This document shows, in pieces, positions 5,583 through 22,861 of a stretch of 31,970 nucleotides of DNA. The stretch comes from Candidatus Woesearchaeota archaeon. GTDB taxonomy: Archaea; Nanobdellota; Nanobdellia; SCGC-AAA011-G17; CAZHCT01. Location: assembly GCA_964531355.1 (NCBI GenBank), contig CAZHCT010000002.1:1-31970 (forward strand), written 5' to 3'. Below the pieces are notes generated by a model that saw only the letters and a program-made list of their open reading frames with translations, ran no database searches and was not told the origin of the DNA. The stretch's first letter is position 1. Every line of letters begins with the position of its first letter. Both the position numbers and the translations under genes were made by a program.

Positions 5583-5898
5583 CCAATGCTTTTCTGAATC
5601 TTAATGATTTTTTTTCATTGATAAATGCTGCTTCTATCTCTGGATTTTTGCTTATGACAATCTCAAGAAAACCATTTTTTTCAAACATAAACCTTTCATA
5701 GCACTTGTTGTTTATTATGTCAAATCCCATTGAATAGATTTTTTCCTTAAAGTATTTTTCAAGAATTTTCATGAATTTTTCCAATGAGCTCCATGCTTCA
5801 TGAGTTTTCTTCAACTTTTTATCCAGTTTTAACTCTTCTTTTACTGCAAAAGGCAGTATACTTCTTTTATCATTGAGTCTTATTGTGTATGATTTCAT
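5548..5898 (-). CDS. Hypothetical protein
   Basis: 116-aa ORF with TATA-like TTTATATT about 25 nt upstream; no recognised motif. Confidence 0.65.
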   Translation of the reverse strand: MKSYTIRLNDKRSILPFAVKEELKLDKKLKKTHEAWSSLEKFMKILEKYFKEKIYSMGFDIINNKCYERFMFEKNGFLEIVISKNPEIEAAFINEKKSLRFRKALDKTIKYFKSRK

Positions 5899-5963
5899 CT
5901 TTTATATATTATTTATTCAATAAATATAAACCTATTGTTTTTGATTTTTATATCATCTTGCTC

Positions 5964-6001
5964 TTACCCTCTACATCTTAAAATTAGATTGTAAAGGGTA
6001 A
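5964..6001. repeat. 38-bp palindromic site TTACCCTCTACA-N14-TGTAAAGGGTAA at the Fic 3' end
   Basis: 12-bp inverted arms with one mismatch; partner site at 7033-7070. Confidence 0.95.
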
Positions 6002-6002
6002 A

Positions 6003-7001
6003 TTAAAGGAATATGCTCCAATAGGAATCTATCATCTCTTGCGAGATAAATTGAATTAATCCAAAGTAATCCTCTCTTGGGGATTGGGTAAGCGGACTTT
6101 TATCGGATCTTCTAAGCTGATTTAAGTATTCTGCTCTTCTTTTTTTGTATATTACCAGCGGCGGATATCCATTTTTCATCAAGATAAAATTCAAGAGCAT
6201 TCTTCCTGTTCTTCCATTGCCATCCATAAATGGATGTATCTTTTCTATTTTATGATGAAAGATAGAGGCTAAAGCTATCGGATGAAGCTTTTTTTTATTC
6301 TGTTCATACCATCTTAGCAATAGGTCCATATCTGTTTTAACATAGGGGGCTGGCGTTGCATCAAAATTAGACCTTAAAACTCTTACATCAGCATTTCTAT
6401 ATCCTTTTCTTTGGTCTATATTTTCTGTTAGATCAGAATGAACTTTAATTATAAGCTCATGGTTTATTTCTTCATTGCATTTTATTAAATCTAAAAAAAC
6501 TCTTTCTGTGTTTTGCAAATCATAAATTTCTCTTAATGTTTTATTCTTGGGGGTAAGGCCTTCTTCTAATAGGTTTGCTGCTTCTTTTAGCGTTATTGTG
6601 TTTCCTTCTATAGATGCTGTGTTAAATGCAAATTCTATTATAAAATACTTAAATATTTCTTTTTTTCCGAGATTATCTTTTTTTAAAAAAACATTATTAT
6701 AATGCAATTTACAGGCTTCTACTTCAATAAGCTTTTTATCCAGAAACTGGTCTTTTTTAAGCTTCAACGAAGCAGCCTTTTCCAGAAAATGATTTGATTC
6801 TATAAAGGAGTTAATAGTTTTGTAGGCTTTTCTTATTTGTTTTTTATATTTCTTCAGCTTGCTCATAGATTTCCTTACTTCTTCTATGGAACTGCCTAAG
6901 TAAGCAATGTCTTTAACCATTATTTTATTTTTTATTCTTTCAGAAGCTCTGAGGTAATAATAAGGTTTTCCGCTGACGATTTTTTTGTATATATAAACCA
7001 T
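6003..7001 (-). CDS. Fic-domain protein with an N-terminal extension
   Basis: Complete catalytic motif HPFMDGNGRTGR; FAFNTASIEGNTITL; N-terminal beta-rich YIYKKIVSGKPYYYLRASER segment. Confidence 0.95.
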   Translation of the reverse strand: MVYIYKKIVSGKPYYYLRASERIKNKIMVKDIAYLGSSIEEVRKSMSKLKKYKKQIRKAYKTINSFIESNHFLEKAASLKLKKDQFLDKKLIEVEACKLHYNNVFLKKDNLGKKEIFKYFIIEFAFNTASIEGNTITLKEAANLLEEGLTPKNKTLREIYDLQNTERVFLDLIKCNEEINHELIIKVHSDLTENIDQRKGYRNADVRVLRSNFDATPAPYVKTDMDLLLRWYEQNKKKLHPIALASIFHHKIEKIHPFMDGNGRTGRMLLNFILMKNGYPPLVIYKKRRAEYLNQLRRSDKSPLTQSPREDYFGLIQFISQEMIDSYWSIFL

Positions 7002-7070: not shown

Positions 7071-9203
7071 TCAAATTTTTCTATGCTTTAATTTATATGC
7101 AATAGATGGATGCTCTCTCCCTACTTTTATTGAATGAATCAACAAGTATTTTTCCTTTGTTTCTGGAAGTGAATGCTTTAATGAATTTTTCAATGCATGA
7201 GCGAATTTTTTAGCCCGTTTTTTATATATGAAATGAGCTACCAATGTCAATGGCTTGTTTTCTATTACATCAATAAACCCATCTTTTTTGAAGATATATT
7301 TATTCCTATTTTCTTCTTCTGAATGTATATGAGTTATCGGCTCTCTGAAATTATGCTCTGTTGTTTTTATCAAGCTGCTTTCATTTATTAATGAGTTTAA
7401 GTCTATCAAATAAACATAATAATGCTTGAATCTTAATAACATAAATGGAATTAATAATGCCAATAATAATGGCCATAATGAGAATATAATTCCTGTTGTG
7501 ATAATTACTGCACTGAATGTTAATATGTTTTTTGGTATTACTGGAATTGAAATTGGCTGCTCTTCTACAGGGCATTTTTTGCATCCATCTCCGCAATCTA
7601 CTCCTGTTTCAAAGCAGTCCTGTTTTGAGTTATTGCAATGATTATGACAATCTCCTTGGGTTAATGCTAGATATTGCTGCTTGCATTCTTCATCTGGTCT
7701 TGTGTATTTTTTAAAACATCCTCTTTCATAAACACATTCTTCTATTTCATCTTTAACACATTTTTTATATGCATAAGAGCATTCATTCTTGCAGACACAT
7801 TCTCCATTACTGCAGGTTTGGTATGTTTCACAGTAAATTCTATTACTCCAATATCTGCAGCCATCTGGATTTTGCAGGCAAGTATCATAAGCTTCATTAT
7901 CATAAGTGCATTTTTTCTCGTTTAAGGTGTTACAGCTGCTTGAGCAACCTGATGAACTACCACCTGAGCTTCCTCCACCTGAAGAACTGCTACCTGAAGA
8001 GGGGCATGCACCGCAATCTGATGAACAAGAAGAGCATAATTCTGTTCCTGAGCATAATCCACCACCGCAGGTGTTTATTGTAAATGTGAAGTTATTGTCA
8101 TAGAAATCTGTTTGGACTATTGTTGAATTGTCTGTACATTGAATATTCCATAAATATGTTCCATCTCTTAATGATGGGATTGTAATGTTGAATGTTTTGT
8201 TTGAGTAATTGTAGTTTATATCTCTTGAATTGTTAGCTAACCAAGAACCTGAGAAATTTGCGTATAAAGTGCAGTTTACTACTAAATAATCATCTTCTAC
8301 TGTAAAGTTGAAGTCTATTGGGGAAGAGGTTATTGATGATGCATTTAATGGGTAAGTTAAGTTTGAGACGTTTGGAGGATTGTCTTGTGTTAATGTTAAT
8401 ATTACATCCTTGTTTCCAGAGCCTATTAATATTGATGAGTTTACTGCTCTGAAATTTCCTATTGTTGCATTTACAGAATATGTTGCATAATATGCTGTTC
8501 CTGATGCTGTATCATTTGTGTATTCTGTTGCATTGAAGATTGCATGACCTGATGAATTTGTTGTTAATGTGTAAGTTGCTGAGGTTGAGTTAAATGCTAT
8601 AACTGTTGCTCCATTTACATTTGTTCCATTTGTGTAATTTACTTTTGTTCTTATATACCATTGTCTTGTGTAGTTTGATGAGGTTGTGAAGTTTATTTTT
8701 GAGTAGTTTACGTTTAATAATGTTATATTAATTGATTTTGTTATTTTGATGTCATTATTTGTGCTTGCGCTTATGTTTGAATTCCATATTAATGTGTTAT
8801 TTGCCGAGTATAAATGGATTCCTTCTGTTGTGAAAGAGGTTATTCTGCAGTTTCTTATGTTCATATTTGAGTTTATGCTTGTTATGTTCATTCCAAAACC
8901 TGCTGAACCTCCTCCTGTTATTGTGTTGTCTTGGCAGTTTAGTTCTGTGTTTGCTGCGTTGAAGATGGCACCGTTTGCAGCAAGTATAGAGTCACAGTCA
9001 ATCGTTCCGATAATATCATAATAACCTGTTCCTTTTGTTTGATCACAATATCCTGCTGCATTTAATGTTGTTAATCCGGTTATACTTGGTTTTAAAAAAA
9101 ACTCTTTTATAATTCCAAAGCCAAATAATATAATAATAAGTAACAGTAAGAATGGAATAAGTTCAAATTTCTTTTTAATACTATTTACACCTTTTTTAAA
9201 CAT
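7071..9203 (-). CDS. Large cell-surface protein (N-terminal TM/signal, beta-helix, Ig-like domains, Ser/Gly linker, Cys-rich repeats, C-terminal TM)
   Basis: Hydrophobic N-terminus then SITGL; Asn/Thr-rich with many N-x-S/T sequons; CGGGLCSGTELCSSCSSDCGAC; SSGSSSSGGGSSGGSSSG; ETGVDCGDGCKKC; TM segment before a cytoplasmic tail. Confidence 0.8.
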   Translation of the reverse strand: MFKKGVNSIKKKFELIPFLLLLIIILFGFGIIKEFFLKPSITGLTTLNAAGYCDQTKGTGYYDIIGTIDCDSILAANGAIFNAANTELNCQDNTITGGGSAGFGMNITSINSNMNIRNCRITSFTTEGIHLYSANNTLIWNSNISASTNNDIKITKSINITLLNVNYSKINFTTSSNYTRQWYIRTKVNYTNGTNVNGATVIAFNSTSATYTLTTNSSGHAIFNATEYTNDTASGTAYYATYSVNATIGNFRAVNSSILIGSGNKDVILTLTQDNPPNVSNLTYPLNASSITSSPIDFNFTVEDDYLVVNCTLYANFSGSWLANNSRDINYNYSNKTFNITIPSLRDGTYLWNIQCTDNSTIVQTDFYDNNFTFTINTCGGGLCSGTELCSSCSSDCGACPSSGSSSSGGGSSGGSSSGCSSSCNTLNEKKCTYDNEAYDTCLQNPDGCRYWSNRIYCETYQTCSNGECVCKNECSYAYKKCVKDEIEECVYERGCFKKYTRPDEECKQQYLALTQGDCHNHCNNSKQDCFETGVDCGDGCKKCPVEEQPISIPVIPKNILTFSAVIITTGIIFSLWPLLLALLIPFMLLRFKHYYVYLIDLNSLINESSLIKTTEHNFREPITHIHSEEENRNKYIFKKDGFIDVIENKPLTLVAHFIYKKRAKKFAHALKNSLKHSLPETKEKYLLIHSIKVGREHPSIAYKLKHRKI

Positions 9204-9251
9204 AAAAAAGATTAGTTATATTGTATATATAAAATTATTGTTAGTCTTAAA

Positions 9252-10124
9252 TCATTGTGATGTTGGATCGGGGAATACGTTATTTCCGGTTGATGACCAT
9301 TTTGAATCTTCTCTCCATTCTACATCCCCTCCTATATGCAGAATATTTCCTCCACCTTTAAGATTTCTCTTCGCAAGGTGATTTGCTATAGTCCTCTGCC
9401 CTGCTGTTCCTTCCCCATTTTCTAGTCCTGCATACCAATCGTATACAATAGGAAATCTACTATCCACTAGAAAGCCATTAATGACCTGCCCACCATTTCT
9501 TACTATTTGTACATCAAATGAATCAATATAAGACATTCTTGGTTGATTATCATTATAACCCGGAGTAGCTATTACAATTGTTGTTGGTTTTTTAGTTTCT
9601 TTATCTGCAGGACATCTAAAAGTTCCTGGTGTATCTATATAACCCCCTATGTAAATTAATCCTAAGGAAGCCACATTTAATGGTGATTCATAAAAAGGAT
9701 AATTTCCATCATAATCTAACATATATCTAGTTAAAGCTCCTCCAATATTCTTGAGATTAAAAGCACAACCAGCTCTATTTCCTTTTTCTATTGCTTCCCC
9801 TACTGGACCGGCTAATAATGCGGCAAGTATACCAATAATAGCCACAACAACAAGCAACTCAATCAATGTAAATCCTTTTCCGCCTGTTTTTTGAAATCTA
9901 TCAACTAATTCTTGATTTTTTTCATTGCTAAATCTAGATGTTATATCTGATGTTTCTTTGGGATCTAATTTACTAGCATAATTAACTGCCTCATTAAAAT
10001 TATTTCTAAACAGATATTTTTGAACTTTCTTAGCTACATTATAAAACTGAGAACTTAGATTAGGATATTCTCTATTCATAACTTCATTTATTGGCGTATT
10101 TAGCGCTATTGCTTCTAGTGACAT
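9252..10124 (-). CDS. Prepilin-type N-terminal cleavage/methylation domain protein (DUF1559/H-X9-DG-like) with an 84-aa leader
   Basis: GGKG|[20 protein letters not shown] at aa 84/85 with E5; [24 protein letters not shown]; C-terminal NH...[14 protein letters not shown]. Confidence 0.85.
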
Positions 10125-10350
10125 AAAATTAAGTAATTATAGAACTATTTAAAGTTTACTATTTAAAAGTAATTAAATATCTCATAAGCAAAGTTATTAC
10201 AACATTTTGTTTTAAAGGGATCTATATTTTATCATTTTATAAGATCTTTAAGGTTTTCCTTCCAATCCACATCAACATAAATTACCGAAAATTTACTCAA
10301 CTTACCTAAAAATTCTAAAGGTTTATAAATAAATTAAGTTTAATAAAAGT

Positions 10351-10782
10351 ATGACAGAAAAAATAATAAGACCTAGTGTAGTATTAGTCAAGGGAACGAA
10401 AATATTATTGCTTAAAAGCAAATATTCTTCTGGGGAGTTTTATTTATTGCCTGGGGGGGGTATTGAACGCTTTGAAAATATTGAAGAAACTGCGATAAGA
10501 GAGACTAAAGAAGAAACCGGATATGATATAAAAATAGAAAAACTTCTTTATTTATCTGAGTGGATTGAAAAAGAAAGAAATAAAAATATATTATATATCA
10601 TCTTTCTTGGGAAAATAAAAGGGGGCAAAGAAACCCACTTAAATGATCCATGCTTAGAGAAAGGAAATATTCAAGCAATTGAATGGATAGAAATTAAGAA
10701 TTTAAATAAAATTAAATTCTATCCTGAAGAAATAATTTCTAATCTAAAGAAAGATATAAAAAATCTTAGATTTAAAAAATGA
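10351..10782 (+). CDS. NUDIX hydrolase
   Basis: Nudix box PGGGIERFENIEETAIRETKEETGYDI; TATA at 10322-10329. Confidence 0.93.
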   Translation: MTEKIIRPSVVLVKGTKILLLKSKYSSGEFYLLPGGGIERFENIEETAIRETKEETGYDIKIEKLLYLSEWIEKERNKNILYIIFLGKIKGGKETHLNDPCLEKGNIQAIEWIEIKNLNKIKFYPEEIISNLKKDIKNLRFKK

Positions 10783-10783
10783 A

Positions 10784-11590
10784 TTAAAGTTTTATTAAAT
10801 TAAAAATTTTCATACCTGAGTTTATATTTATTTCCCCAGATGGATTCATATTATCTCTCAGTATGTTTTCTAGAAAATCATAAACTTTAAAATAAGTATC
10901 TTTGTCAAAAAGATTTGCTAAATGAAAATTAAGAAATGTTTCTATTGCTAAGTCAAGCGATTTGAATCTTGCTTGGCCTGTTACTTCTTCAATGCTAAAA
11001 TCGATAATATTTAATTTTTTATATTCTTCTAATTTTTGTATAAAAAAATCTTCTTTTTCACTGGTATTTTTATTTGGATTATATTTTTTATCTTTATATT
11101 TGTTTAGAACCTTTCTGATTAACTTTTGCTCAAATTTGCCCCTATCTGCATGAAAAAAAATCCCTTTTGTTCCCGAAGATAATTTTTCAAATAACATTCC
11201 ATTAGAATTTCCATCTAGATAAGGACCCCAAAATGAAAATATTAAATCATATTTTCTTAATGAATTTTTTTTAATAAAATTATTCATATCATCATTAATT
11301 ATAACAATCTTATCATCTATTTTTAATTCAAATGATTTTAACATAAACGGGTTTATTTCTATAATTGTAATATTACTTGAATATGCCTGAAGAACTTTTG
11401 TTGCTCTGCCAGTCCCAGCAGCAAATTCCAAAGAATTATTTATTTTATCTTTTAAATTATTCTCCAGGTAGTAATTTAAATATTCTAAATCAGATAAATT
11501 ATTCAAATCATATTTGGGTAAGAGCGAGCAGTAATATTTCCCATCCTCATAACAGTTTCTATTTTCCCAAAAGATATTTGTTTTGACCAT
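10784..11590 (-). CDS. Class I SAM-dependent methyltransferase, substrate unknown
   Basis: Motif I LEFAAGTGRAT, ITIIEINP, YDLIFSF; ATG at 11590 lies 1 nt after the upstream stop (track start 11614 is also possible). Confidence 0.8.
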   Translation of the reverse strand: MVKTNIFWENRNCYEDGKYYCSLLPKYDLNNLSDLEYLNYYLENNLKDKINNSLEFAAGTGRATKVLQAYSSNITIIEINPFMLKSFELKIDDKIVIINDDMNNFIKKNSLRKYDLIFSFWGPYLDGNSNGMLFEKLSSGTKGIFFHADRGKFEQKLIRKVLNKYKDKKYNPNKNTSEKEDFFIQKLEEYKKLNIIDFSIEEVTGQARFKSLDLAIETFLNFHLANLFDKDTYFKVYDFLENILRDNMNPSGEININSGMKIFNLIKL

Positions 11591-11591
11591 T

Positions 11592-12521
11592 TTATAATTT
11601 AAACCCAAATTCATTTACTCGTATTAATCTATCAAATTCTATTTTTTCAACACATTTGTAATTAACAAATGCTGAAATTTTTTGTATCCCCACTTTCCAA
11701 GCCCCATATGCACGATGTCTACCATCATAAATTATATCTGCATATTTTCCATCTTTTTGTATAATTCTGGTTACATTTATTGGTTTTAATTTCTTGCCTT
11801 TTTTTAGTTCTCTAAACTTTAGACTACTAGTTGATTGATAAACTCTTGGTTCAAAATCTACAAATAAATTTTCAATGCAAATTTCATTATTTAATATTTT
11901 TTCGTTTAAGATATGTTCTATGCACATTTTAGTAGAAAAATTTTCGTTAATGGTTGAAGTATCAATAATTTTATATGGAACATTAAATCTAGAGATTATT
12001 TCTCTATAAAGCATAGTAAACTCATTACTTTTTTTTTCAGACAATAAACTTTCTTGTTCATGTTTTTTTAGATATTGTCTTGACATTGCCCTTCTTTTTC
12101 TTTCTTCATAATCACATTCAATTAGAAATATATATTTTGGTTTTATACTTTTTTTGATAAATCTATCCATTTCTTTTATTTTTACATTATTCATAATTAA
12201 AGAATAAAATATGATTGCTGGAATATATCTATCTTGTATTATTTCTTTGAATTCACAGGGATTAGAGGGTAGAGAATCTCTTAGATAACAATTGAGGAAA
12301 TATTCTGATTTTTCCTTTGAGGTTAATCCTTTTATTCTTCCATCTTCTACAATATCATTTCTAATAAGTCCTTGATTATAATTATATACATTATCAATAT
12401 TGTAATCTTTTTTTAATAAAAAGGAAATATTTTTTGCTAAAACGGTCTTTCCGTTAAAGTCAAGCCCCTCAAATAAGATAAATCCAGGATGTTTTAGTTT
12501 AAGATTATTAATTTGTTTCAT
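11592..12521 (-). CDS. Thymidylate-kinase-like NMP kinase fused to a C-terminal ParB/Srx-like domain
   Basis: P-loop FEGLDFNGKT, IIQDRY motif, LID-like EERKRRAMSR; C-terminal KPINV...IIYDGRHRAYGAWKVG. Confidence 0.75.
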   Translation of the reverse strand: MKQINNLKLKHPGFILFEGLDFNGKTVLAKNISFLLKKDYNIDNVYNYNQGLIRNDIVEDGRIKGLTSKEKSEYFLNCYLRDSLPSNPCEFKEIIQDRYIPAIIFYSLIMNNVKIKEMDRFIKKSIKPKYIFLIECDYEERKRRAMSRQYLKKHEQESLLSEKKSNEFTMLYREIISRFNVPYKIIDTSTINENFSTKMCIEHILNEKILNNEICIENLFVDFEPRVYQSTSSLKFRELKKGKKLKPINVTRIIQKDGKYADIIYDGRHRAYGAWKVGIQKISAFVNYKCVEKIEFDRLIRVNEFGFKL

Positions 12522-13647
12522 AGAAAAACCCCTTATAAACTTCTGTATCTAATGAGCTTCTTCTACCAAATTCTGGAAATATTGGGATCAATCCATAATC
12601 TTTAGTTATCTTATCTTGTTCTGATAATATTTCAAACATATATTCAAGAGAAGGTCTTGGAAAATTAAAAAGAGGGGTCCCTTCATCAGGATGAAAGACA
12701 TTTAGGGATGGATGTATCCCTAATTTTCCAAAAAAATTCATTCCATCAGTTAAAGTCTTAGTTGATTCTAATCCACAAACAAAACCCGCTTTAACCGCAT
12801 TTTTTCTAAAAAGTTTAGAAGATTTTTCAAAAATATTCAAAAATTTTTCATATCCTATTTGTTTTTCTTTACCTGGACAATATCTTTTAAAAAGATTTGG
12901 ATCAAAAACTTCTATGTCAAATGCTATTGAATCTGGTCCTTCTTCTGCTAGGGAATATAATAGTTCATCTGATACAGGAGGAATTGTTACTAAATGATAT
13001 CTTACTGATTTGCCAGTTATTTTTTTCATTGATTTTATATATTTTAATTGATGTTCAATTCCCTTATCTGGGTTATTATAAGCTCCTGAAGAAATAAGAA
13101 TATAATTAAAAAGACCCTTATCCTTCTCTAAAGCAAGGTTAAGGGTCTCAATGACATTTTTTAATTTTAATTCTGGAAGATTTTCTTTTCCTTTATTTTT
13201 CTTTGTGTAGTCTATAGAACAAAAATAGCATCCTTCATTTTTATGCATAAAATAAGAGCAATGCCTATTGACAAAAATTGCAAAAACATCTATACCATAC
13301 ATCACAGCTATTTTTGATGCAGGAGTTCCATCAGATAAAGTACAGTTTGAAAAATTTGCTTCTGGAGTTAATTTTATATTACATAATCTTTCGTTTTTAT
13401 AATACAAAGACCTTTCATTTATGGAAAATGGCGAATTATTTTCTAAGAATATATTACTAATTATATTGTTGGGTAAAATTATTTCTGATGGTAAAATAAG
13501 ATCTGTTGTGATAGATGAATCGTAAATATATTTTTCAAGAGCTTCATCTTTATGTACTTTAAAGTTTTTATCAATGTTTACCCCTTTGATTAATAAGTTT
13601 AATTTAATTAATGCAGGATTATTTTTTAATTTATTAGTTTCCGTCAT
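12508..13647 (-). CDS. Radical SAM protein with a non-canonical CX9CX2C motif
   Basis: RHCSYFMHKNEGCYFC; TIM-barrel motifs ISSG, DSIAFDIEVFD...YCPGK, GFVCGLE, FHPDEGTPL. Confidence 0.85.
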   Translation of the reverse strand: MTETNKLKNNPALIKLNLLIKGVNIDKNFKVHKDEALEKYIYDSSITTDLILPSEIILPNNIISNIFLENNSPFSINERSLYYKNERLCNIKLTPEANFSNCTLSDGTPASKIAVMYGIDVFAIFVNRHCSYFMHKNEGCYFCSIDYTKKNKGKENLPELKLKNVIETLNLALEKDKGLFNYILISSGAYNNPDKGIEHQLKYIKSMKKITGKSVRYHLVTIPPVSDELLYSLAEEGPDSIAFDIEVFDPNLFKRYCPGKEKQIGYEKFLNIFEKSSKLFRKNAVKAGFVCGLESTKTLTDGMNFFGKLGIHPSLNVFHPDEGTPLFNFPRPSLEYMFEILSEQDKITKDYGLIPIFPEFGRRSSLDTEVYKGFFYETN

Positions 13648-14392
13648 CTTTTATAATCCCTCCGACAGGAATTTCTCCTCCAAGTCTTTTTATGTGGTCT
13701 ATTCTCCAAAGGAGAGAAGTGTCTAAGAAAACATCAATTCCCTTTTTATAACAATCGTGAAAGAAATAAGAATCATCCGCTCTATTTATTTTAGAGTTAT
13801 ATCTTACTTCTACAGATTTTATAATCTCTGTGTCAATCAAAGTACAACCTAATGAACAGCTCTTTACCTGAATTATTCCCTTATTTTCTATTTCTGAAGC
13901 GAGATACCATTCATTTACATCAACTGAATCAACAACATCTAAAACCTTGTCTAATTTAGAAGCAGAAATAACATAATCTACACATCTTCTTTGGTTGTTG
14001 GTGTGTGGTGAAACAATATAAGGTGCCCCTATAATTTTTTTATTATGCGACAAAAGAATGGTTAATATATCTAATGGCACAATTATATCCTGCTCAATCG
14101 ACATAAGAAAATCATAACCTCTTTCAATAACATAGTGATTTAACTTCTTTCTTGCTTCTGTAAGTCTTTCAAATGGATTTATATAATACTCTGATTTTAT
14201 TACTTCAATCTCTTCTTTTTCAAAAATTTTTTCAAATCTTGTGTTTTGTTTACTATTATCAACAACAACTATGTCATAGTTTTCATAAGCCAGGTTTTTT
14301 ACATTTTCTATCCAATAGGGGGTTATATACTTTTTATTTGAATAAGCCGGAGATCCAACCAATATTTTAGGTAATTTTTTTTTTAATTTCAT
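13634..14392 (-). CDS. GT-A fold glycosyltransferase (GT2-like)
   Basis: KILVGSPAY, DIVVVDNS, ARKKL, DFLMSIEQDII (DxD variant), LGCTLI, ADDSYF; start at ATG 14392. Confidence 0.82.
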   Translation of the reverse strand: MKLKKKLPKILVGSPAYSNKKYITPYWIENVKNLAYENYDIVVVDNSKQNTRFEKIFEKEEIEVIKSEYYINPFERLTEARKKLNHYVIERGYDFLMSIEQDIIVPLDILTILLSHNKKIIGAPYIVSPHTNNQRRCVDYVISASKLDKVLDVVDSVDVNEWYLASEIENKGIIQVKSCSLGCTLIDTEIIKSVEVRYNSKINRADDSYFFHDCYKKGIDVFLDTSLLWRIDHIKRLGGEIPVGGIIKDDGN

Positions 14393-14774
14393 AGAGATAT
14401 TATAAAAACAGAATATATAAACCTTTCTATTTATTCCTCTTCGGTAAGTAGTAACAACCATATTTTCGTAATTTGCTTCTTGATACGTCCTTCGTATTTT
14501 GATGCCTTTGGTTAACCTTTTAGGTTTAATTACATTCTCAGATTTAATTATAATTAATTGTTCTATTAAATAATTTATAAAACTATCTAAAGTATCAGTT
14601 CCATCCAATGCAACTAAATAATGCTTTATTTCAGAAGTTATTTCAATAAATATTACGAAGATTTATTAATAAATGAGCTTATTCTAAATAATGAGGTACA
14701 TCTAATAATGGAAAGAATAAAATGATAATAAAAAGAGAAAATGAAAATCCATTTGTTGAGATAATCAAAAAAAA

Positions 14775-15377
14775 ATGGCAGAAGAAATAGAACTTAAATT
14801 TGAAGTAAAGGATTATAAAAGTTTTGTTAAGGATGTTCTTAATATCTGTAAATTTATAAAATCGGCGATAGAGTTGACTGTAATGTACGATTATCCCAAT
14901 AAAATTCTATTTAATAAGGATGCACGATTAAGATTGCGTAAGATAGTTGATCTAAAGGACAATAAAGAGACTTGTGAACTTAGTTATAAAAAACCAAAAA
15001 CAAGGGAGGGGATTAAGATAGAAGAAGAATATGAAGTACAAGTTTCTTCGTTTGACCAAATGGACTTGATATTAAAAAATATTGGTTTTTTGAAAATTAG
15101 TAGTTATGAGAGAGTTAGGGACACATTTGTAGGTGATAATTGCAAAATTACTTTAGATAGTTTTCCATTTGGGGATTTTATTGAGATTGAAGGAGAAATA
15201 GATAAAATAAAATTTATTGCTAAAAAGCTTAAATTAGATATTGATAAAAATATAACCAAATCATATGATGACATTTATGCAGATCTATCAAAAAGAGATA
15301 AAAAAGAAGTAAAAGATCATTTAGTTTTTGATAAACCACTTCTTTTAGAAAAGGTTGAATTAAGAAAATCTATATAG
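14775..15377 (+). CDS. CYTH-domain protein (class IV adenylate cyclase/triphosphate tunnel enzyme family)
   Basis: EIELKF (ExExK), RLRLR, LSYKKP...EEYEV, YERVR, ITLD...GDFIEIEG. Confidence 0.9.
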   Translation: MAEEIELKFEVKDYKSFVKDVLNICKFIKSAIELTVMYDYPNKILFNKDARLRLRKIVDLKDNKETCELSYKKPKTREGIKIEEEYEVQVSSFDQMDLILKNIGFLKISSYERVRDTFVGDNCKITLDSFPFGDFIEIEGEIDKIKFIAKKLKLDIDKNITKSYDDIYADLSKRDKKEVKDHLVFDKPLLLEKVELRKSI

Positions 15378-15870
15378 ATGATAGAATAGACAGATTAAAT
15401 TTATCTTTCAGAAAAAATTGTGAAGGTTATTTTTTTGATGAATATAGGGATATCTTGGCAAAGGAAATGGATGGCATTTTAGTTTTTCCTGTAGGGGTAT
15501 TGATGATAACGAGAATATAGAGAAAGCGATTATTAGAGAAACCTTTGAAGAAACAGGAGCAACCATAAAAAATCTAAAAAAGATTGGAGAATTGAAATTT
15601 ATCTGGGGTCTAAATTGGGCTAAGACAGAAAAACAAAGAAAAAGGTATCAACAATATAAAGGTGAAGATATGCATTTCTTTGTTGGAGAGATAATTAAAT
15701 TTAATGAGCAAACTAAAAAAGAAGAAGATTTCTGGGTCGAAAAAAGGTTATTCCCGATAAAGAAATTAATTGAAATTATAGAATCAGGAAGACCTTTTGG
15801 CGAAGAAATTAAGGAATATAGAGAAACTCAATTAAAATTTTTAAGAGAAATTCAAAATGGAAAAATTTAA
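15378..15870 (+). pseudogene. NUDIX hydrolase with two -1 frameshifts
   Basis: Adding one A at 15385-86 and one G at 15494-97 restores a 164-aa ORF MIEIDRLNLSFRKNCEGYFF...FPVGGIDDNENIEKAIIRETFEETGA with a full Nudix box; the track shows only the C-terminal 92 aa. Confidence 0.8.
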
Positions 15871-16030
15871 GGTTGGAATAATAGGATTAAGACGCCAAGC
15901 AAGCCAAGATCATATTCCTGCGGTACTTAGTTCTGATCTTACTGAACTTAAAGCAGTTTGTGCAGGTTTAAATACGAAATTTAAATTGGAAGTATTAAAA
16001 TATAAGAGAGAAACCAATAGTTTTATATAA
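15857..16030 (+). pseudogene. Truncated Gfo/Idh/MocA oxidoreductase N-terminus
   Basis: MEKFKVGIIGLRRQASQDHIPAVLSSDLTELKAVC is a Rossmann beta1-alpha1-beta2 start; similarity stops after about aa 35 and the frame ends at 57 aa. Confidence 0.7.
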
Positions 16031-16051
16031 TAAAATGTTTGAAGTTAGGTT

Positions 16052-16798
16052 ATGACCTTTCCAAACTTTAAAAACAAGTATCTTGCTGAAGCATTATTTC
16101 ATCCTAATGACTTTATTAATTACAAAAAATGGGACAAGTCTAAATTTCCTTCAAGATACTTGCTAATATATTATCTTACACCATACAACTATTTACTAAA
16201 AAAGTATACGGGGAAATATCAAAAAATAAAATTATACAGTAACTTATCTATAATCCAAATTGGAAAAGTTGGAGTAATTAAAATGACAGGCATAGGCGCT
16301 CCTAATGCTGTAACAGTTTTAGAAGAATTGATAGCATTAGGTGGAAAGCAATTTATAAATATTGGAACCGCGGGTGGTTTGCAAGGTGAGGGGGTTTTTA
16401 TTTGTGATAGAGCTATTAGAGATGAGGGTACTAGTTATCATTATATTCCTTATGATAAATATTCCTATCCGAATAAAGATTTAACAAAAAAATTAGGTAT
16501 GTCCTTCAAAAAGCAAGGTGTGAATTTTACAAGTGCACCAACATGGACAATAGATGCTCCCTATCGAGAAACAAGAGATGAAATTGCTTATTATAAAAAA
16601 GAGGGGGTAGCAACTGTTGAAATGGAGGCTTCTGCCTTATTTGTAGTGGCTTCTGTTAGAAAAGTAAAAATTGCTTCTGCATTTGTAGTAAGTGATATTT
16701 TAGAAGAGAAGTGGAACCCAAAGTTTCATAAAATTGATATCAAAATAACATTAAATAAGATGATTGATGCTTCTATTCATTGTTTAAATAAAAATTAG
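16052..16798 (+). CDS. Nucleoside phosphorylase (PNP/UDP family)
   Basis: GIGAPNA, INIGTAGGL, AIRDEGTSYHY, TWTIDAPYRET, VEMEASALF. Confidence 0.92.
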   Translation: MTFPNFKNKYLAEALFHPNDFINYKKWDKSKFPSRYLLIYYLTPYNYLLKKYTGKYQKIKLYSNLSIIQIGKVGVIKMTGIGAPNAVTVLEELIALGGKQFINIGTAGGLQGEGVFICDRAIRDEGTSYHYIPYDKYSYPNKDLTKKLGMSFKKQGVNFTSAPTWTIDAPYRETRDEIAYYKKEGVATVEMEASALFVVASVRKVKIASAFVVSDILEEKWNPKFHKIDIKITLNKMIDASIHCLNKN

Positions 16799-16897
16799 AA
16801 TCCAGAAAGATATATAAACAAAACCCACTAAATTTATTTAGAGCACGTTCCATATATTGAAGCGAAGATTTTAAAAATTATATGGAGAACAGAATAA

Positions 16898-17590
16898 ATG
16901 GCTACTAAAATCGGTGTTTCAACAGGAGTATTTTACAAATACTTTAAGGAAGAAGAATTAAATCAAATGATTTCATTCCTAAAATCCATAGACCTTGATG
17001 TAATTGAAATACTTTATGCTAGACCATTTATGTTGGATGTGAAAATTTCAGATGAAAATATGGTTTATTTAAACACCAAAGAAGTATTAATTCATTCCCC
17101 TTTTTTTGTTAATCAAGGATATAAAGATATAGCTTATGATAAATCTCTTATTAAAAAGTTAATAGAGAAACAAAAATTACTTAGATCCAAGCACATTATT
17201 TTACATCCAGATTTATTGCCAAATTTTGATTTAATTAAAAAATATTCTAAGATATTTGTTTTTGAAAATTTGAAAGAAGAGAGAACTTATTCTTTTCAAA
17301 AATTATTGAATATGATAGATTCTGGACTAAAAATGAAAATTTCATTAGATATTGGTCATTTGAATAATATAGATAGTTTAGGATTATTAAAAATAATCAA
17401 AAAGTATAAAAAGAATATAGCTGAAATTCAATTATCTATTAAAGAAGATTATGAAGAATTTTTAAATGACAATATTAGTTCTAAATACTCTTTTTTGATA
17501 GGGATAGATATTCCAATAATTTTAGAGACAAGACCTAAAGAATTGTCTCATTTAAATATAATAATTAAAAATTTAAGAAACTTTTTATAA
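16898..17590 (+). CDS. Xylose isomerase/AP endonuclease 2-like TIM-barrel protein
   Basis: KIGVST, LIHSP, IILHP, FENL, SLDIGHL, ILET follow the strand order of this fold. Confidence 0.65.
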   Translation: MATKIGVSTGVFYKYFKEEELNQMISFLKSIDLDVIEILYARPFMLDVKISDENMVYLNTKEVLIHSPFFVNQGYKDIAYDKSLIKKLIEKQKLLRSKHIILHPDLLPNFDLIKKYSKIFVFENLKEERTYSFQKLLNMIDSGLKMKISLDIGHLNNIDSLGLLKIIKKYKKNIAEIQLSIKEDYEEFLNDNISSKYSFLIGIDIPIILETRPKELSHLNIIIKNLRNFL

Positions 17591-17625
17591 AAATAGAAAG
17601 ATTTAAATAGTAATTATCTTTGATA

Positions 17626-17644
17626 TTAGTAATAAAATTACTAA
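17626..17644. promoter_or_regulatory. Putative AbiEi operator TTAGTAAT-AAA-ATTACTAA
   Basis: Perfect 8-3-8 inverted repeat between the TATA box (about 17602-17609) and the abiEi ATG; extra half-site TAGTAAT at 17608-17614. Confidence 0.55.
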
Positions 17645-17656
17645 AATTAAAGAAAA

Positions 17657-18364
17657 ATGCAATTAAGCAAACTTGAGAATAGGGTTTATGAAGAACTGAA
17701 AAAGAACAAATTTATCGCATTTAAAATCAGAGATTTGAGCTTGCTGCTGAATCTAAGCAGAACAAAAGCTTACAATATTGTGAAGGCTCTTAAAAGAAAG
17801 CAGGCAATAGAGAGAATTGGGAAGAATTTTTTTGCACTAAGAGAAATGAATGATATTGTCATTGGCCAAACTATCCATTACCCTTCTTACCTTTCTTTCT
17901 GGTCTGCTTTGAACTATTACGGATTTTCTGACCAAACCCCAAAGAAAATATTTTTTGCCACAACAAAATATGCAAAGGAAATTAATAATTTTAAATATGT
18001 AACATTATCAAAGAAAAGATTTTTTGGCTATGAAAGAATAGGAGAATTAACAATTGCGGAAAAAGAAAAGGCGATTATAGACTCTTTGCTATTCCCAAAA
18101 TATTCCGGGGGAATCAGAGAAATAAACGCGGTTTTAAGAACAGGTTTGAAACAGATAAATATTAAAAGATTGATAAATTATGCCTTTAAAGTTGAGAGCA
18201 AAGCAGTTTTAAGAAGACTTGGTTTCATTCTTGAAACACTAAATTATAAAAAAGAGTTAAAAAAGATAAGAGAAAACATAGGCAGGGGCTATGAATTGCT
18301 AGATCCCGCTTTAAAAAGAAAAAATAATTTAAATAAAAAATGGCTTTTAGATGTGAACTGGTAA
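17657..18364 (+). CDS. abiEi: AbiEi-like type IV antitoxin / transcriptional regulator
   Basis: N-terminal wHTH; YPSYLSFWSALNYYGFSDQTP; AEKEKAIIDSL; RRLGFILE. Confidence 0.85.
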   Translation: MQLSKLENRVYEELKKNKFIAFKIRDLSLLLNLSRTKAYNIVKALKRKQAIERIGKNFFALREMNDIVIGQTIHYPSYLSFWSALNYYGFSDQTPKKIFFATTKYAKEINNFKYVTLSKKRFFGYERIGELTIAEKEKAIIDSLLFPKYSGGIREINAVLRTGLKQINIKRLINYAFKVESKAVLRRLGFILETLNYKKELKKIRENIGRGYELLDPALKRKNNLNKKWLLDVNW

Positions 18365-18365
18365 A

Positions 18366-19112
18366 ATGATCCTAATAGAAGAGCTTAATCAAATTAAAGA
18401 AGCAAAAAAGACAAATTCATACTATGAAGAAAAGGAATACCTGCAATATATTTTTCTTAATGCTATTTCTAAATATCCCGATAATTTTGTCTTTAAGGGG
18501 GGAACATGCTTGAAAATATGTTTTGGTCTTGAAAGAGCATCAGAAGATTTAGACTTCAGCACCAGTTTTAAGATTGATAAACTTAAAGAAGTTGTTTATA
18601 AATGCTTAAAAGATTTTGAGTTGCTTAATATAAATTATGAGATTTATTCAGAAAGAGAGTTTGAAGGCAATTTAAGATTTGAGATTAGATTTAAAGGCCC
18701 TTTATTCCAAGGACATGCAAAATCAACAAACACCCTGAAGATAGATTTCAACAAAAGAAATGTTAAAAATAAAATAATTAAAGTTATCCAAAAATTGTTT
18801 TCTGATGTGCCTTTATTCAGCATAGTTGTTTTAGATGAAAAAGAGATTCTCGCGGAAAAAATAAGGGCTTTAATTAATAGAGCAGAATCAAGAGATTTAT
18901 ATGATATATGGATGCTCTTAAATAAAGGAATAAAAATAGACAGAAAGCTTTTAATTATAAAATTAAATGAGGAAAAAAGCAAATTTTCTAATTTAAGATT
19001 TCCTTCAAAAGAGGAATATGAAAGAGATTTAAAAAATTTAGTTAAGACACTGCCATCTTACGAGCAAGTAAAGAAAGAAGTTTCAAAAGAATTTGATAAG
19101 ATTGCGCATTAA
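18366..19112 (+). CDS. abiEii: AbiEii-family nucleotidyltransferase toxin
   Basis: FVFKGGTCL...RASEDLDF; EILAEKIRAL...RDLYDIW. Confidence 0.92.
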   Translation: MILIEELNQIKEAKKTNSYYEEKEYLQYIFLNAISKYPDNFVFKGGTCLKICFGLERASEDLDFSTSFKIDKLKEVVYKCLKDFELLNINYEIYSEREFEGNLRFEIRFKGPLFQGHAKSTNTLKIDFNKRNVKNKIIKVIQKLFSDVPLFSIVVLDEKEILAEKIRALINRAESRDLYDIWMLLNKGIKIDRKLLIIKLNEEKSKFSNLRFPSKEEYERDLKNLVKTLPSYEQVKKEVSKEFDKIAH

Positions 19113-19179
19113 CTTATACATAAAGCGATTTTGTTGCATATGCAATATTTATAAACCCCAAAATTACAGAATTATAAAG

Positions 19180-20505
19180 ATGATAGAAATAGCAGCTATT
19201 GGAGGGTATGATGAAGTTGGAAAGAATATGACTGCTATTAAAATTGATGATGAGGTAATAATTCTTGATATTGGTTTGTTTTTGCCTAAAATAATCTCTT
19301 ATGAGGAAAATGAAAACAAAGAATTAAGCGCAAAGGAATTAATTGAGATTGGAGCTGGTCCAGATGATTCTATAATTGAGAAATGGAAAAACAATGCAAA
19401 GGCAATTGTTTTAGGGCATGCGCATTTAGACCATATTGGTTTTGCGCCTTATGTAGCAAACAAATACAAGTGCCCTATTTTAGGAACACCATTCACGTTA
19501 GAGGTTTTAAAAAAAATAATTGAAGACAAAGAAATAAAAGTAATGAACCAAATAATTCCAGTAAATCCAAATTCAAGCTTTAAAATATCTAAGAATATCA
19601 CTATAGAATTCATAAATATAACGCATTCCACATTGCAGACAGTAATGATAATAATACACACAAAATATGGGGATATTGTTTATGCAAATGACTTTAAGTT
19701 TGACAATCATCCTGTTTTAGGAAAAAAACCTAATTATGAAAGATTAAAGGAATTAAGCAAGAATACAATATGCTTAATAGTTGATTCATTATATTCTGGG
19801 TTAGAGCAGAAAACACCAAGCGAGAAAGTAGCAAGAGAGATGTTAAGCGATGTTTTATTAGGAACTGAAAACAAGGATAATGCAGTAATAGTAACTACGT
19901 TTGCATCTCATATAGCAAGATTAAAAAGCATAGTTGATTTTGGGCAAAAATTAAGAAGAAAGGTTGTTTTTTTGGGAAGAAGCTTGTCTAAATATGTTTA
20001 TGCTGCCAAAGACACGAATCTGATAGATTTCAAAAATGTTGAGATTATTGGATATGCAGGAAAGATAAAGAAAAAGCTAAGGGAAATTGAGAAAAACGGG
20101 AGAAGCAATTATTTGGTTGTTGTTACAGGGCATCAAGCAGAGCCTGGTTCTGTTTTAGTAAAAATGGTTAATGGAAATCTGCCATTTAATTTTTTGGATG
20201 GGGATCATATTGTATTTGCATGCAAGGTAATTCCAGATAAAGTAAATATTGAAAACCGGGAGAAATTAGAAGCAAAACTGAAGAAATTAGGAGTTAGGTT
20301 ATTCACAAATATACACCAGAGTGGGCATTGCGGAAGAGAAGATTTAAGGGATTTAATTGAGATGCTAAGACCAAGGCATATTATACCTGCTCATGGTGAC
20401 GAGGAAAAAAGAATTCCTTTAATAGAGCTAGCAACAGAGTTAGGTTACAAGAGAGATAAAGATGTGCATTTAATTAATAATGGGGATTTTTTAAGGATTA
20501 TTTAG
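19180..20505 (+). CDS. rnj: Archaeal ribonuclease J (beta-CASP metallo-beta-lactamase)
   Basis: AIGGYDEVGKNMTA, HAHLDHIG, THSTL, DFKFD, TTFASHIARL, GHQAEP, HQSGH, IIPAHG; ATG 19180 is 24 nt after TTTATAAA. Confidence 0.93.
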   Translation: MIEIAAIGGYDEVGKNMTAIKIDDEVIILDIGLFLPKIISYEENENKELSAKELIEIGAGPDDSIIEKWKNNAKAIVLGHAHLDHIGFAPYVANKYKCPILGTPFTLEVLKKIIEDKEIKVMNQIIPVNPNSSFKISKNITIEFINITHSTLQTVMIIIHTKYGDIVYANDFKFDNHPVLGKKPNYERLKELSKNTICLIVDSLYSGLEQKTPSEKVAREMLSDVLLGTENKDNAVIVTTFASHIARLKSIVDFGQKLRRKVVFLGRSLSKYVYAAKDTNLIDFKNVEIIGYAGKIKKKLREIEKNGRSNYLVVVTGHQAEPGSVLVKMVNGNLPFNFLDGDHIVFACKVIPDKVNIENREKLEAKLKKLGVRLFTNIHQSGHCGREDLRDLIEMLRPRHIIPAHGDEEKRIPLIELATELGYKRDKDVHLINNGDFLRII

Positions 20506-21538: not shown

Positions 21539-22861
21539 ATGTGCGGGATATTTGGGGTGTATGGAAATGAAAATGCTGCAACATTAGCATGGCTGGGATT
21601 GCATGCAATACAGCATAGAGGACAGGAAAGTGCTGGGATTATTACTTCTGATGGAAAAAATATTTATCAGGATAAAGGTTCAGGAACAACTGCATTGGCA
21701 ATTAAATCAGAAAATTTAGGAAAGTTAAAGGGATTTTTAGCAATAGGCCATGTAAGATATTCTACAAGCGGAGAAAGCTCTTTGCAGCAACTAGAAAACT
21801 GCCAGCCTTTAATGAAATTATATAAAAAAATTCCATTTGCAATTGCCCATAACGGGAATATAGATGACATGTCTGTTTTGGATAATAAGTTAAATGGGCT
21901 TCTTTTCAGAACAAGCATAGATACAGAAGCTATAATGCATTTAATAGCTAAATCAGATAAAGAGGATTTTAAAGAAAAGGTTATAGATGCATTAAGGCAA
22001 ATTCCTCCATCTTATTCATTAGTAATGATTTATGGTGATATGCTGATTGCAGCAAGAGATCCTTATGGTTATAGGCCATTGTCATTGGGAAATCTAAATG
22101 GCACGCATTTAATTGCATCAGAGAGTGTTGCTTTTGATATTAATGAAGCAGAGTTTGTAAGAGATATTGAGCCTGGAGAAGTATTGTTCATTGATAAAAA
22201 TGGAATAGAAAGCAGGATAATAGAGAAAAAAGATAATTTGAAACAATGCATATTTGAATTGGTTTATTTTGCAAGACCAGACAGCAAGGTATTTGGCTAT
22301 AGTGTAAGCAAGTTCAAAGAGGAATTGGGAAGACAATTAGCAAGAGAGTTTCCCATTAAAGCTGATGTTATAGTGCCTGTTCCAGATGCTGCAAATTCAG
22401 CTGCTATTGGCTATTCTAAAGAGTCTGGGATTCCATATCATTTAGGCATAGTAAGAAACCATTATATTGGAAGGACTTTTATACAACCAGGAAATGAGCT
22501 AAGGCATTTTGGAGCTAAAATGAAATTTAATGCAGACAAGGAAATTTTAAATGGAAAAAGAGTTGTGATTGTTGATGATTCTATTGTTAGAGGAACTAAT
22601 GCAAGAAGAATAATTGAAATGGTCAGGAGAGCTGGAGCTAAGGAAGTCCATTTAATGATAACATTTCCACCTTGGAAAAAGCATTGCAGATGGGGCATTG
22701 ATACTAAATCTGATAAGGAATTGATTGCAGCTTCACATGAGATTGAGGAAATAAGAAAAGAAATAAATGCAGACAGCCTGCGTTATCTAAGCGCAGAGGG
22801 ATTATTAAAATCAGTTCATAATTCACAGAATAAGTTTTGCGTTTACTGCACAGGACATTAA
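21539..22861 (+). CDS. purF: Amidophosphoribosyltransferase (Fe-S type)
   Basis: MCGIFG Ntn nucleophile, QHRGQESAGI, GHVRYST, HNGN, CIFELVYFARPDS, VDDSIVRG PRPP loop, HCRWGID, FCVYC. Confidence 0.97.
   Translation: MCGIFGVYGNENAATLAWLGLHAIQHRGQESAGIITSDGKNIYQDKGSGTTALAIKSENLGKLKGFLAIGHVRYSTSGESSLQQLENCQPLMKLYKKIPFAIAHNGNIDDMSVLDNKLNGLLFRTSIDTEAIMHLIAKSDKEDFKEKVIDALRQIPPSYSLVMIYGDMLIAARDPYGYRPLSLGNLNGTHLIASESVAFDINEAEFVRDIEPGEVLFIDKNGIESRIIEKKDNLKQCIFELVYFARPDSKVFGYSVSKFKEELGRQLAREFPIKADVIVPVPDAANSAAIGYSKESGIPYHLGIVRNHYIGRTFIQPGNELRHFGAKMKFNADKEILNGKRVVIVDDSIVRGTNARRIIEMVRRAGAKEVHLMITFPPWKKHCRWGIDTKSDKELIAASHEIEEIRKEINADSLRYLSAEGLLKSVHNSQNKFCVYCTGH

Follow-up and report, generated by a model that had tools for sequence, protein, structure and literature searches.

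The window analysed here is an entire contig of 31,970 bp from a DPANN-type genome (743 kb, 89% complete), and its positions 10351-14392 hold a compact group of five genes, among them that of a variant radical S-adenosylmethionine (SAM) enzyme. With about even confidence, we predict that these genes constitute a conserved, horizontally mobile, cytoplasmic module that makes an oxidized, glycosylated, nucleotide-derived small molecule. The genes and the intergenic region that adjoins them are as follows:

13634-14392, minus strand: predicted glycosyltransferase of GT-A fold with 252 aa, leading the operon (family-level Anp1/Glycos_transf_2 matches)
12508-13647, minus strand: variant radical SAM enzyme, 379 aa, BciD-like (NF045502, PF04055, fold of the AlphaFold2 model)
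11592-12521, minus strand: fusion of a dTMP-kinase-like domain (residues ~1-205) and a ParB/sulfiredoxin-fold domain (~209-309), 309 aa (PF02223, fold of the AlphaFold2 model)
10784-11590, minus strand: class I SAM-dependent methyltransferase, 268 aa, optional member (sub-threshold Methyltransf matches)
10351-10782, plus strand: convergent NUDIX hydrolase of 143 aa, regularly found in the module (PF00293)
14393-14774, no strand: intergenic region of 382 bp between the operon and a divergent CYTH gene (from the gene coordinates)

The four minus-strand open reading frames (ORFs), which the original prediction had described as one operon, were all confirmed together with their junctions. Thus, the glycosyltransferase gene overlaps the radical SAM gene by 14 nt, the radical SAM gene overlaps that of the kinase fusion by another 14 nt, and the methyltransferase ATG lies 1 nt past the stop codon of the kinase fusion (TAA-A-ATG). 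The NUDIX gene that had been noted as convergent with the operon also proved sound, scoring 56.6 bits on PF00293 (cut-off 21.1) and showing an intact NUDIX box (GX5EX7REUXEEXGU) that can be read in the translation of 10351-10782; the stop codons of this gene and of the methyltransferase gene are separated by 1 nt. At the other end of the module, an ORF starting with TTG reaches 14608, but the homologues of the glycosyltransferase, which have 243-265 aa, align from the ATG at 14392, and 14393-14774 is presumed to be the promoter region. None of the five module proteins is predicted to contain transmembrane segments. A search for flanking repeats over 9000-19500 gave imperfect AT-rich matches only, so that no cassette boundary is marked.

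Related loci were gathered through exact-protein look-ups and from GTDB genomes, metagenome contigs and a plasmid collection, which yielded 51 non-redundant loci whose neighbouring ORFs were clustered. The counts of neighbours are lower bounds, since many of the contigs are short, and ORFs in high-GC loci were called crudely. Four architecture classes were distinguished:

Class A: glycosyltransferase, radical SAM enzyme, Tmk/ParB fusion, optional methyltransferase and NUDIX (one locus with a fusion of HD and glycosyltransferase); 14 loci including the window
Class B: GT2 glycosyltransferase, radical SAM enzyme, HIT, APH-type kinase and class II aminoacyl-tRNA synthetase (aaRS)-like gene; 5 loci
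Class C: radical SAM enzyme with two GT2 glycosyltransferases, polysaccharide deacetylase, SPASM radical SAM enzyme and AAA_17 kinase; 4-5 loci
Class D: B12-binding radical SAM protein of ~710 aa and variant radical SAM enzyme, then Tmk-family kinase, DUF2797 or NUDIX; ~20 loci

All class A loci belong to DPANN-type archaea where a host is named. In the 13 class A loci other than the window, the kinase-ParB fusion directly follows the radical SAM gene in every case, the glycosyltransferase gene precedes it in all 12 loci that have upstream sequence, and the junctions mostly overlap. The original prediction had allowed that the core genes might fail to occur together elsewhere; on the contrary, they recur in the same order in 13 other loci, and this strict collinearity of glycosyltransferase, radical SAM enzyme and kinase-ParB fusion argues that the core is more than a chance assembly. 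NUDIX is present in 7 of the 10 class A loci with enough flanking sequence, counting the window and one decayed locus, and its orthologues (51-73% identity) adjoin the kinase gene in L008, L009, L012, L053, L056 and L026. In L048, which lacks NUDIX, the glycosyltransferase, 57% identical to that of the window over 236 aa, begins with a fused HD phosphohydrolase domain (5595-6998). Only three loci have the methyltransferase, namely the window, L045 (89% identical) and L008, and all three fall within one subclade of the radical SAM tree. By gene order, therefore, NUDIX is a regular member of the module and the methyltransferase appears to be an optional add-on. The decayed locus, L026 (7898-9562, in the Woesearchaeota metagenome-assembled genome G353), is a deletion remnant of the module, where codons 4-56 of the glycosyltransferase abut codons 333-375 of the radical SAM enzyme and the kinase-ParB fusion (301 aa aligned) and NUDIX are intact. 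The CYTH protein, the second NUDIX, the Gfo piece, the nucleoside phosphorylase and the 230-aa gene that follow the module in the window accompany the core in none of the 13 other class A loci. Since no gene of 14775-17590 does so, the functional unit is most plausibly delimited as 10351-14392.

The radical SAM enzyme scored 237.5 bits on the NCBIfam model NF045502 ('variant_rSAM', cut-off 125) and 37.2 bits on PF04055 (cut-off 29.5), and it reached 97 bits on the MSMEG_0568 model TIGR04043, far under the equivalog cut-off of 304. In an alignment of 38 sequences, C130, C140 and C143 are invariant and make up the three-cysteine site of a [4Fe-4S] cluster, with Cx9Cx2C spacing in the window and Cx8Cx2C in most relatives; a fourth invariant cysteine, C257, is part of the motif YCPGK, and there are invariant charged residues besides, several in number. 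RadicalSAM.org lists clusters with variant motifs of both spacings, with no function given in the passage concerned (PMC9477430), and the present family may be among them. No pVip or viperin model in NCBIfam or PADLOC matched the enzyme at E <= 0.01.

The AlphaFold2 model of the radical SAM enzyme (predicted local distance difference test, pLDDT, 93.7) exhibits a generic likeness to the solved structures of HydE, BioB and LipA (TM ~0.45, Foldseek probability 1.0). Among the predicted structures of reviewed proteins, BciD was far ahead (E 3e-21, TM 0.77/0.73), followed by BioB and CofG at ~0.45-0.50, and the match to BciD spans residues 1-370, including the N-terminal domain of ~115 aa. Judged by these predicted folds, the nearest characterized relative of the enzyme is BciD, an anaerobic methyl hydroxylase with which it shares only 16% identity. 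BciD is a radical SAM enzyme that is sufficient on its own for the twofold hydroxylation of a ring methyl group (PMC7242693), water has been proposed as the oxygen source in the strict anaerobes concerned (PMC3613366), and low-identity paralogues of BciD in many bacteria were already noted by Harada et al. (PMC3613366). One of these paralogues, IsrB, acts in the assimilation of isethionate, a sulfonate (PMC11423573), and the chemistry across the BciD-like family is therefore not uniform. Oxygen-independent C-H oxidation is the only activity demonstrated in that family. The original prediction held that the product cannot be foreseen from the sequence; this goes too far, since the kinship with BciD, by analogy, suggests hydroxylation followed by glycosylation.

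The third gene of the operon encodes a kinase domain that matched PF02223 with 36 bits (cut-off 27) and the Tmk equivalog TIGR00041 with 37 bits (cut-off 83.25). This domain also had a profile match in the Protein Data Bank (PDB) at E 1e-5, its fold resembles that of the dTMP kinase 2plr (Z 17.0), and it carries a P-loop (EGLDFNGKT) and a DRY motif in the form QDRY; the AlphaFold2 model of the whole fusion has a pLDDT of 90.8. Because of the sub-equivalog score and of a canonical Tmk encoded separately in the same genome (contig C62, 124.9 bits), the fusion kinase is predicted not to be the housekeeping Tmk. The genome has a third gene of the Tmk family as well (contig C24, 8388-8948, 38 bits on PF02223). 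The C-terminal domain of the fusion (residues 209-308) resembles the ParB-like protein 2hwj (Z 9.8, root-mean-square deviation 2.4, 93 residues aligned) and the plant sulfiredoxin (Srx) 6ky4 (Z 9.6, 85/89 residues aligned). Its Pfam matches remain below threshold, with Parb-CE found in five of ten members (E 0.005-0.09) and ParB_N in two of ten, and its GRHRA motif (G267-A271) is invariant. There is no helix-turn-helix (HTH) DNA-binding domain after the Srx-like domain, since the protein ends right behind it at residue 309, and an identity as a chromosome-partition ParB is thus not borne out. Among 5.8 billion proteins, the fusion of kinase and ParB domains was found in 13 clusters only.

The glycosyltransferase family comprises 24 sequences that are 50-90% identical, apart from two distant members (37% and 32%), and its Pfam matches are to Anp1 (GT62) in 19 of the 24 (best E 4.8e-9) and to Glycos_transf_2 in 15 (best E 4.2e-8). 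The window copy alone had no Pfam match, so that 13634-14392 is a predicted GT-A glycosyltransferase gene by virtue of its family. Residues D45, N46, E100 and D102, within VVDNS and EQD, are invariant, of which D45, E100 and D102 may belong to a DxD-type metal site, and a profile search of the PDB returned Mnn9 only, weakly (E 0.028). The methyltransferase gave sub-threshold matches to Methyltransf_25/12/11 and Atlas features of 0.97 to Methyltransf_11/25 clusters, as expected for what is probably a generic class I enzyme of small-molecule type rather than a member of a DNA methyltransferase family.

The module is rare among close relatives of its host and belongs to a much larger radical SAM family. 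Of the 240 species genomes searched in the order of the host, one carries the kinase-ParB fusion, and with it the module, and a sample of 400 genomes of the phylum contained two good matches to the radical SAM enzyme, both in other architectures. The distribution points to an accessory module subject to gain and loss, and the module was probably acquired horizontally. Out of 1.84 billion representative clusters, an exhaustive profile search returned 415 of the radical SAM family at E <= 1e-30 and 1,334 at E <= 1e-10; the cluster members of ten family representatives bore no informative names. Maximum-likelihood analysis places class A as a monophyletic group (100/100) and as sister to class B (100/95), and class D forms a separate deep clade of ~20 bacterial loci. 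Class B is found in CPR-type and other uncultured bacteria (L010, L013/L029, L030, L057, L060), where the block is conserved and its flanks vary; the aaRS-like gene is of the Asp/Asn/Lys type, and the block resembles, by analogy, a nucleotide-antibiotic cluster with resistance genes. Class D cassettes were observed in L020, L021/L032, L022, L023, L025, L033 and others, and the B12-radical SAM gene itself was seen in 17 loci. One of these cassettes lies on an Agrobacterium pusense plasmid, where the genes next in line encode GalE, a phosphodiester glycosidase and an MFS exporter; another, the distant L020, has a CYTH gene upstream. The class D relative in Streptomyces albus subsp. chlorinus (L024) could not be linked to a known product. 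Two further loci, L003 and L004, in DPANN genomes of the same class (G351, G006), have a radical SAM enzyme of 30% identity beside a MiaB-like gene (UPF0004 + radical SAM). Plasmid matches in Klebsiella and Agrobacterium belong to the sister family MSMEG_0568/Nit1C and were set aside as uninformative for function, and the Nit1C literature assigns no role to its radical SAM enzyme.

Across the 51 loci, the partners of the radical SAM enzyme are GT2 glycosyltransferases, Tmk-like and AAA_17 kinases, NUDIX, HIT, HD, APH, B12-radical SAM proteins and GalE. As far as gene neighbourhoods tell, the enzyme is accompanied across the classes by a phosphotransferase and a nucleotide phosphohydrolase, mostly with a GT-A enzyme as well, and the nucleotide theme of the original prediction gains strength at the level of the family from the recurrence of kinase and hydrolase partners across the four architectures.

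We consider a soluble nucleotide pathway to be the most economical interpretation of the module, although confidence in it is evenly poised. In such a pathway, the BciD-like enzyme would use a 5'-deoxyadenosyl radical for the oxygen-independent functionalization of an unactivated C-H bond in a nucleotide-linked substrate, hydroxylation being the simplest case, and the co-translated GT-A enzyme would add a sugar to the new hydroxyl group or could act before the radical step. The Tmk-like domain would phosphorylate the monophosphate form, and the fused ParB/Srx domain could serve as a second nucleotide-binding or phosphotransfer module. NUDIX, or the HD domain fused to the glycosyltransferase in one relative, would hydrolyse the di- or triphosphate form, which may feed the monophosphate substrate or shield the producer's own polymerases from the product. 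In one subclade, the methyltransferase would add a further decoration. This interpretation draws on the collinear gene set with its coupled junctions, the consistent family partners, the intact radical SAM motif and the BciD fold, as well as on the non-housekeeping kinase, the absence of transmembrane helices, the small-molecule type of the methyltransferase, the patchy distribution and the precedent of thmABC. In that system, a radical SAM enzyme, a nucleoside kinase and an NTPase make 4'-thiothymidine, and the NTPase ThmC confers self-resistance (PMC12691670).

Several points weigh against the pathway. What the data show is a conserved set of translationally coupled genes with their domains, and we infer the steps that go beyond the domain calls. 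BciD acts on a tetrapyrrole, at 16% identity, and IsrB on a sulfonate, that is, the chemistry of the family varies. Moreover, the GT2 enzymes, GalE, polysaccharide deacetylase and phosphodiester glycosidase of the distant relatives fit sugar or glycan chemistry equally well. An hhalign comparison of the class A glycosyltransferase with the class B GT2 showed no significant similarity beyond the first nucleotide-binding motif; the two are not detectably homologous, so the association with a glycosyltransferase may have been re-created or recruited repeatedly instead of being ancestral. Finally, the kinase-ParB fusion and NUDIX may function without the other two core enzymes, since L026 has kept both intact after losing most of the glycosyltransferase and radical SAM genes.

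Some of these points lend themselves to a rather unlikely alternative in which the module tailors glycans, following the logic of HpnI/HpnJ and calditol synthase: the radical SAM enzyme would modify a nucleoside diphosphate sugar or a glycoside made by the glycosyltransferase, the GT-A enzyme would transfer to a surface or protein acceptor, and the kinase and NUDIX would recycle or control the carrier. In classes A, B and C, a GT-A/GT2 gene is indeed found upstream more constantly than any other partner, and GalE, the phosphodiester glycosidase, two GT2 enzymes and the polysaccharide deacetylase occur in distant relatives. However, the core proteins are all soluble, genes for a flippase, an oligosaccharyltransferase or a lipid-carrier enzyme are missing from the module, a dedicated Tmk-like kinase with NUDIX, HD or HIT is atypical of glycan operons, and class D lacks the glycosyltransferase yet keeps kinase and NUDIX. 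Another proposal concerns the biological role and does not conflict with the chemistry of the soluble nucleotide pathway: by analogy with viperin/CMPK2 or ThmABC, the product could be an antiviral or antibiotic 'poisoned nucleotide' that terminates chains or inhibits polymerases, with NUDIX or HD providing self-immunity. We regard this role as unlikely. It is in keeping with the recurrent triad of radical SAM enzyme, Tmk-family kinase and NTP hydrolase, with the self-resistance precedent of the NTPase ThmC (PMC12691670) and with a module that is patchy, accessory and sometimes decaying; AbiE genes lie nearby, hicBA and Fic further off, a Fic orthologue sits beside the module in L053, and the fixed HIT, APH and class II aaRS-like block of class B resembles resistance genes. 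On the other hand, the radical SAM enzyme and the methyltransferase had no PADLOC match at all, whether to a system or to the pVip model, and no named PADLOC system was matched by the core proteins. NUDIX and the kinase matched only candidate families that are themselves untested; the core matches were to the candidates PDC-S07 and PDC-M51B and, weakly, to VakA, and the glycosyltransferase had a weak Cas8a match (E 3.8e-4) that is taken as chance. Moreover, housekeeping genes (RNase J, Mre11-Rad50) are present in the window, so that a 'defence island' is not established.

The original prediction had also pointed to base hypermodification in phages, and a corresponding scheme, where the radical SAM enzyme hydroxylates a base (e.g., the methyl group of thymine), the glycosyltransferase glycosylates it and the kinase-ParB protein targets or processes nucleic acid, appears distinctly improbable. 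The logic of T4 and base J combines an NTP pyrophosphatase, hydroxymethylation or hydroxylation of the base, a deoxynucleoside monophosphate (dNMP) kinase and a glucosyltransferase, and the enzyme roles of the module map one-to-one onto it; ParB-fold domains, moreover, occur in DNA-modification systems. A methyl group is present on the substrate of canonical Tmk, and the group that BciD hydroxylates is a ring methyl (PMC7242693); action on DNA bases is known for P-loop kinases and radical SAM enzymes (PMC8989533). Nevertheless, the ParB part is an Srx-like domain of ~100 aa without HTH, genes for aGPT-Pplase, a dUMP hydroxymethylase, TET/JBP or a thymidylate-synthase-like protein are missing from the window, the methyltransferase falls outside the DNA methyltransferase families, and bacterial relatives carry MFS and ABC exporters, which would fit a secreted small molecule. 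The suggested phage link found no support either: at the sensitivity of tblastn and pattern searches, to which the phage comparisons are limited, no relatives of the radical SAM enzyme were found among the 2.9 million viral contigs of IMG/VR, the kinase had one weak match, in a cyanophage, among 50,697 phage records, the glycosyltransferase had no relatives in phage genomes, and PHROGs returned generic Tmk and NUDIX matches only. The single match labelled as phage, in the unverified record MT835476, was dropped, as its flanks look bacterial from their ORF starts (sugar kinase, ABC-transporter components).

A more specific and highly speculative variant, to which we give little credence, would be an oxygen-independent radical SAM route to a hydroxymethyl-, then glycosyl-pyrimidine nucleotide, base-J-/T4-like, in anaerobic DPANN archaea. 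This thymidine route is proposed on account of the Tmk fold, the relationship with BciD and the one-to-one mapping onto the T4/base J enzyme roles. The BciD-like enzyme would hydroxylate the C5-methyl group of a thymidine nucleotide and the GT-A enzyme would glycosylate it, the Tmk-Srx fusion would move the modified monophosphate towards the triphosphate, NUDIX would control the pool, and the product could end up in nucleic acid or serve as an antimetabolite.

Several known systems share part of the logic of the module. The radical SAM enzyme has the full-length predicted fold of BciD (bacteriochlorophyllide c C-7(1)-hydroxylase, Swiss-Prot N0DKX5) and belongs, with BciD, IsrB/NflB and MSMEG_0568 (Nit1C), to a common NCBIfam superfamily. 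BciD, however, has a tetrapyrrole substrate and is found in pigment gene clusters, whereas the module has no pigment gene and pairs its radical SAM enzyme with GT-A, Tmk-ParB and NUDIX partners. Viperin and pVip, accompanied by a CMPK2-type kinase, are alike in that a radical SAM enzyme stands beside a Tmk-family kinase with a nucleotide as the proposed substrate. They differ in that viperin has a CxxxCxxC motif, as opposed to the Cx9Cx2C of the present enzyme, which matches no pVip model, and viperin is absent from the top fold matches of this enzyme, with MoaA appearing only at rank 50; the module further adds GT-A, the ParB/Srx domain and NUDIX. A similarly minimal cassette logic is that of OxsA/OxsB (oxetanocin). 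ThmABC from Photorhabdus (PMC12691670) resembles the module as a minimal cassette of radical SAM enzyme, nucleoside/nucleotide kinase and nucleotide phosphohydrolase, but it is bacterial, it has an AbmG-like kinase of deoxynucleoside kinase (dNK) type where the module has Tmk-ParB, and it lacks a glycosyltransferase. Finally, the hydroxymethylcytosine (hmC) and glucosyl-hmC of T4, base J (JBP + JGT) and the phage 5-HMUDK (PMC8989533) share the logic of pyrophosphatase, base oxidation or hydroxymethylation, dNMP kinase and glycosyltransferase, but no sequence relationship between phage hypermodification enzymes and the module was detected, and an oxidation by the module would be radical SAM-based and oxygen-independent.

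DPANN archaea have pared-down genomes of ~0.75 Mb with little biosynthesis. In this setting, ~4 kb are spent on a putative specialized pathway, kept intact and collinear in at least a dozen lineages but lacking in 239 of the 240 species genomes searched in the order. The radical SAM family that anchors the pathway has one biochemically characterized member, BciD, and the identity of the product would assign a chemistry to the Cx8-9Cx2C radical SAM family, including the widespread Nit1C/MSMEG_0568 and B12-radical SAM cassettes, and would tell which compounds tiny symbionts produce for conflict or communication. If the prediction is true, the pathway might reveal an anaerobic counterpart of the dioxygenase-based routes that hydroxylate and then glycosylate nucleobases.

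On the other side of the intergenic region, the window continues with genes that the original prediction had counted as part of the cluster and that turn out to be unlinked neighbours, two of them decayed:

14775-15377, plus strand: CYTH triphosphate-tunnel protein, neighbour (PF01928, 36.6 bits)
15400-16030, plus strand: decayed genes, a frameshifted NUDIX and a Gfo-like N-terminal piece (three-frame translation)
16052-16798, plus strand: PNP_UDP_1 nucleoside phosphorylase, neighbour outside the module (PNP_UDP_1, 102 bits)
16898-17590, plus strand: 230-aa gene, previously described as 'TIM-barrel', neighbour outside the module (PDC-M70B only)

The domain calls made earlier for the CYTH and phosphorylase genes were correct. 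The CYTH protein has an EIELK (ExExK) motif, and its relatives in the order are only 27-36% identical. The second NUDIX and the Gfo gene, by contrast, are not intact genes as had been supposed. The NUDIX (~15400-15870, box at ~15463-15768) contains one frameshift, is truncated at the N-terminus without a clear start and covers model positions 27-118 only (33 bits), and the Gfo ORF (15857-16030) is a 57-aa stump that looks like the N-terminus of a Gfo/Idh/MocA protein and had no family match. The stretch 15380-16050 thus appears to be a zone of gene decay, where the frameshift may be real or an assembly error. Orthologues of the phosphorylase occur in ~15 of the 240 genomes of the order; the kinase-ParB fusion is absent from all of those ~15, and the phosphorylase genes there have different neighbours. 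The phosphorylase was considered as a partner for disposal of 5'-deoxyadenosine and rejected, as it shows no synteny with the core elsewhere and fits models of the uridine phosphorylase and DeoD types best. The TIM-barrel assignment of the 230-aa protein was not sustained, since it had no Pfam match and only the PADLOC candidate PDC-M70B (1.3e-9) and a weak Nfo match were obtained.

Directly downstream of the 230-aa gene lies an intact AbiEi/AbiEii type IV toxin-antitoxin pair (17657-19112, 1-nt gap, PADLOC E 2.5e-51 and 9.8e-48). The flank beyond it is of housekeeping type, with RNase J (19093-20505), a PurF-like glutamine amidotransferase-phosphoribosyltransferase (21539-22861), Mre11 (22863-24038) and Rad50 with a zinc hook (24028-26070). 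A 680-aa protein common with L048 had been taken for a defence ATPase and was dropped as evidence for an island, Pfam identifying it as Rad50 beside Mre11; in L048, a MazG-like gene and the Rad50 orthologue are located a few kb downstream of the module. On the other side of the module in the window, the Fic gene (6003-7001) has an orthologue of 62% identity in L053 (7817-8812), directly beside the NUDIX of the module, and Fic and the module therefore share a neighbourhood in two genomes.

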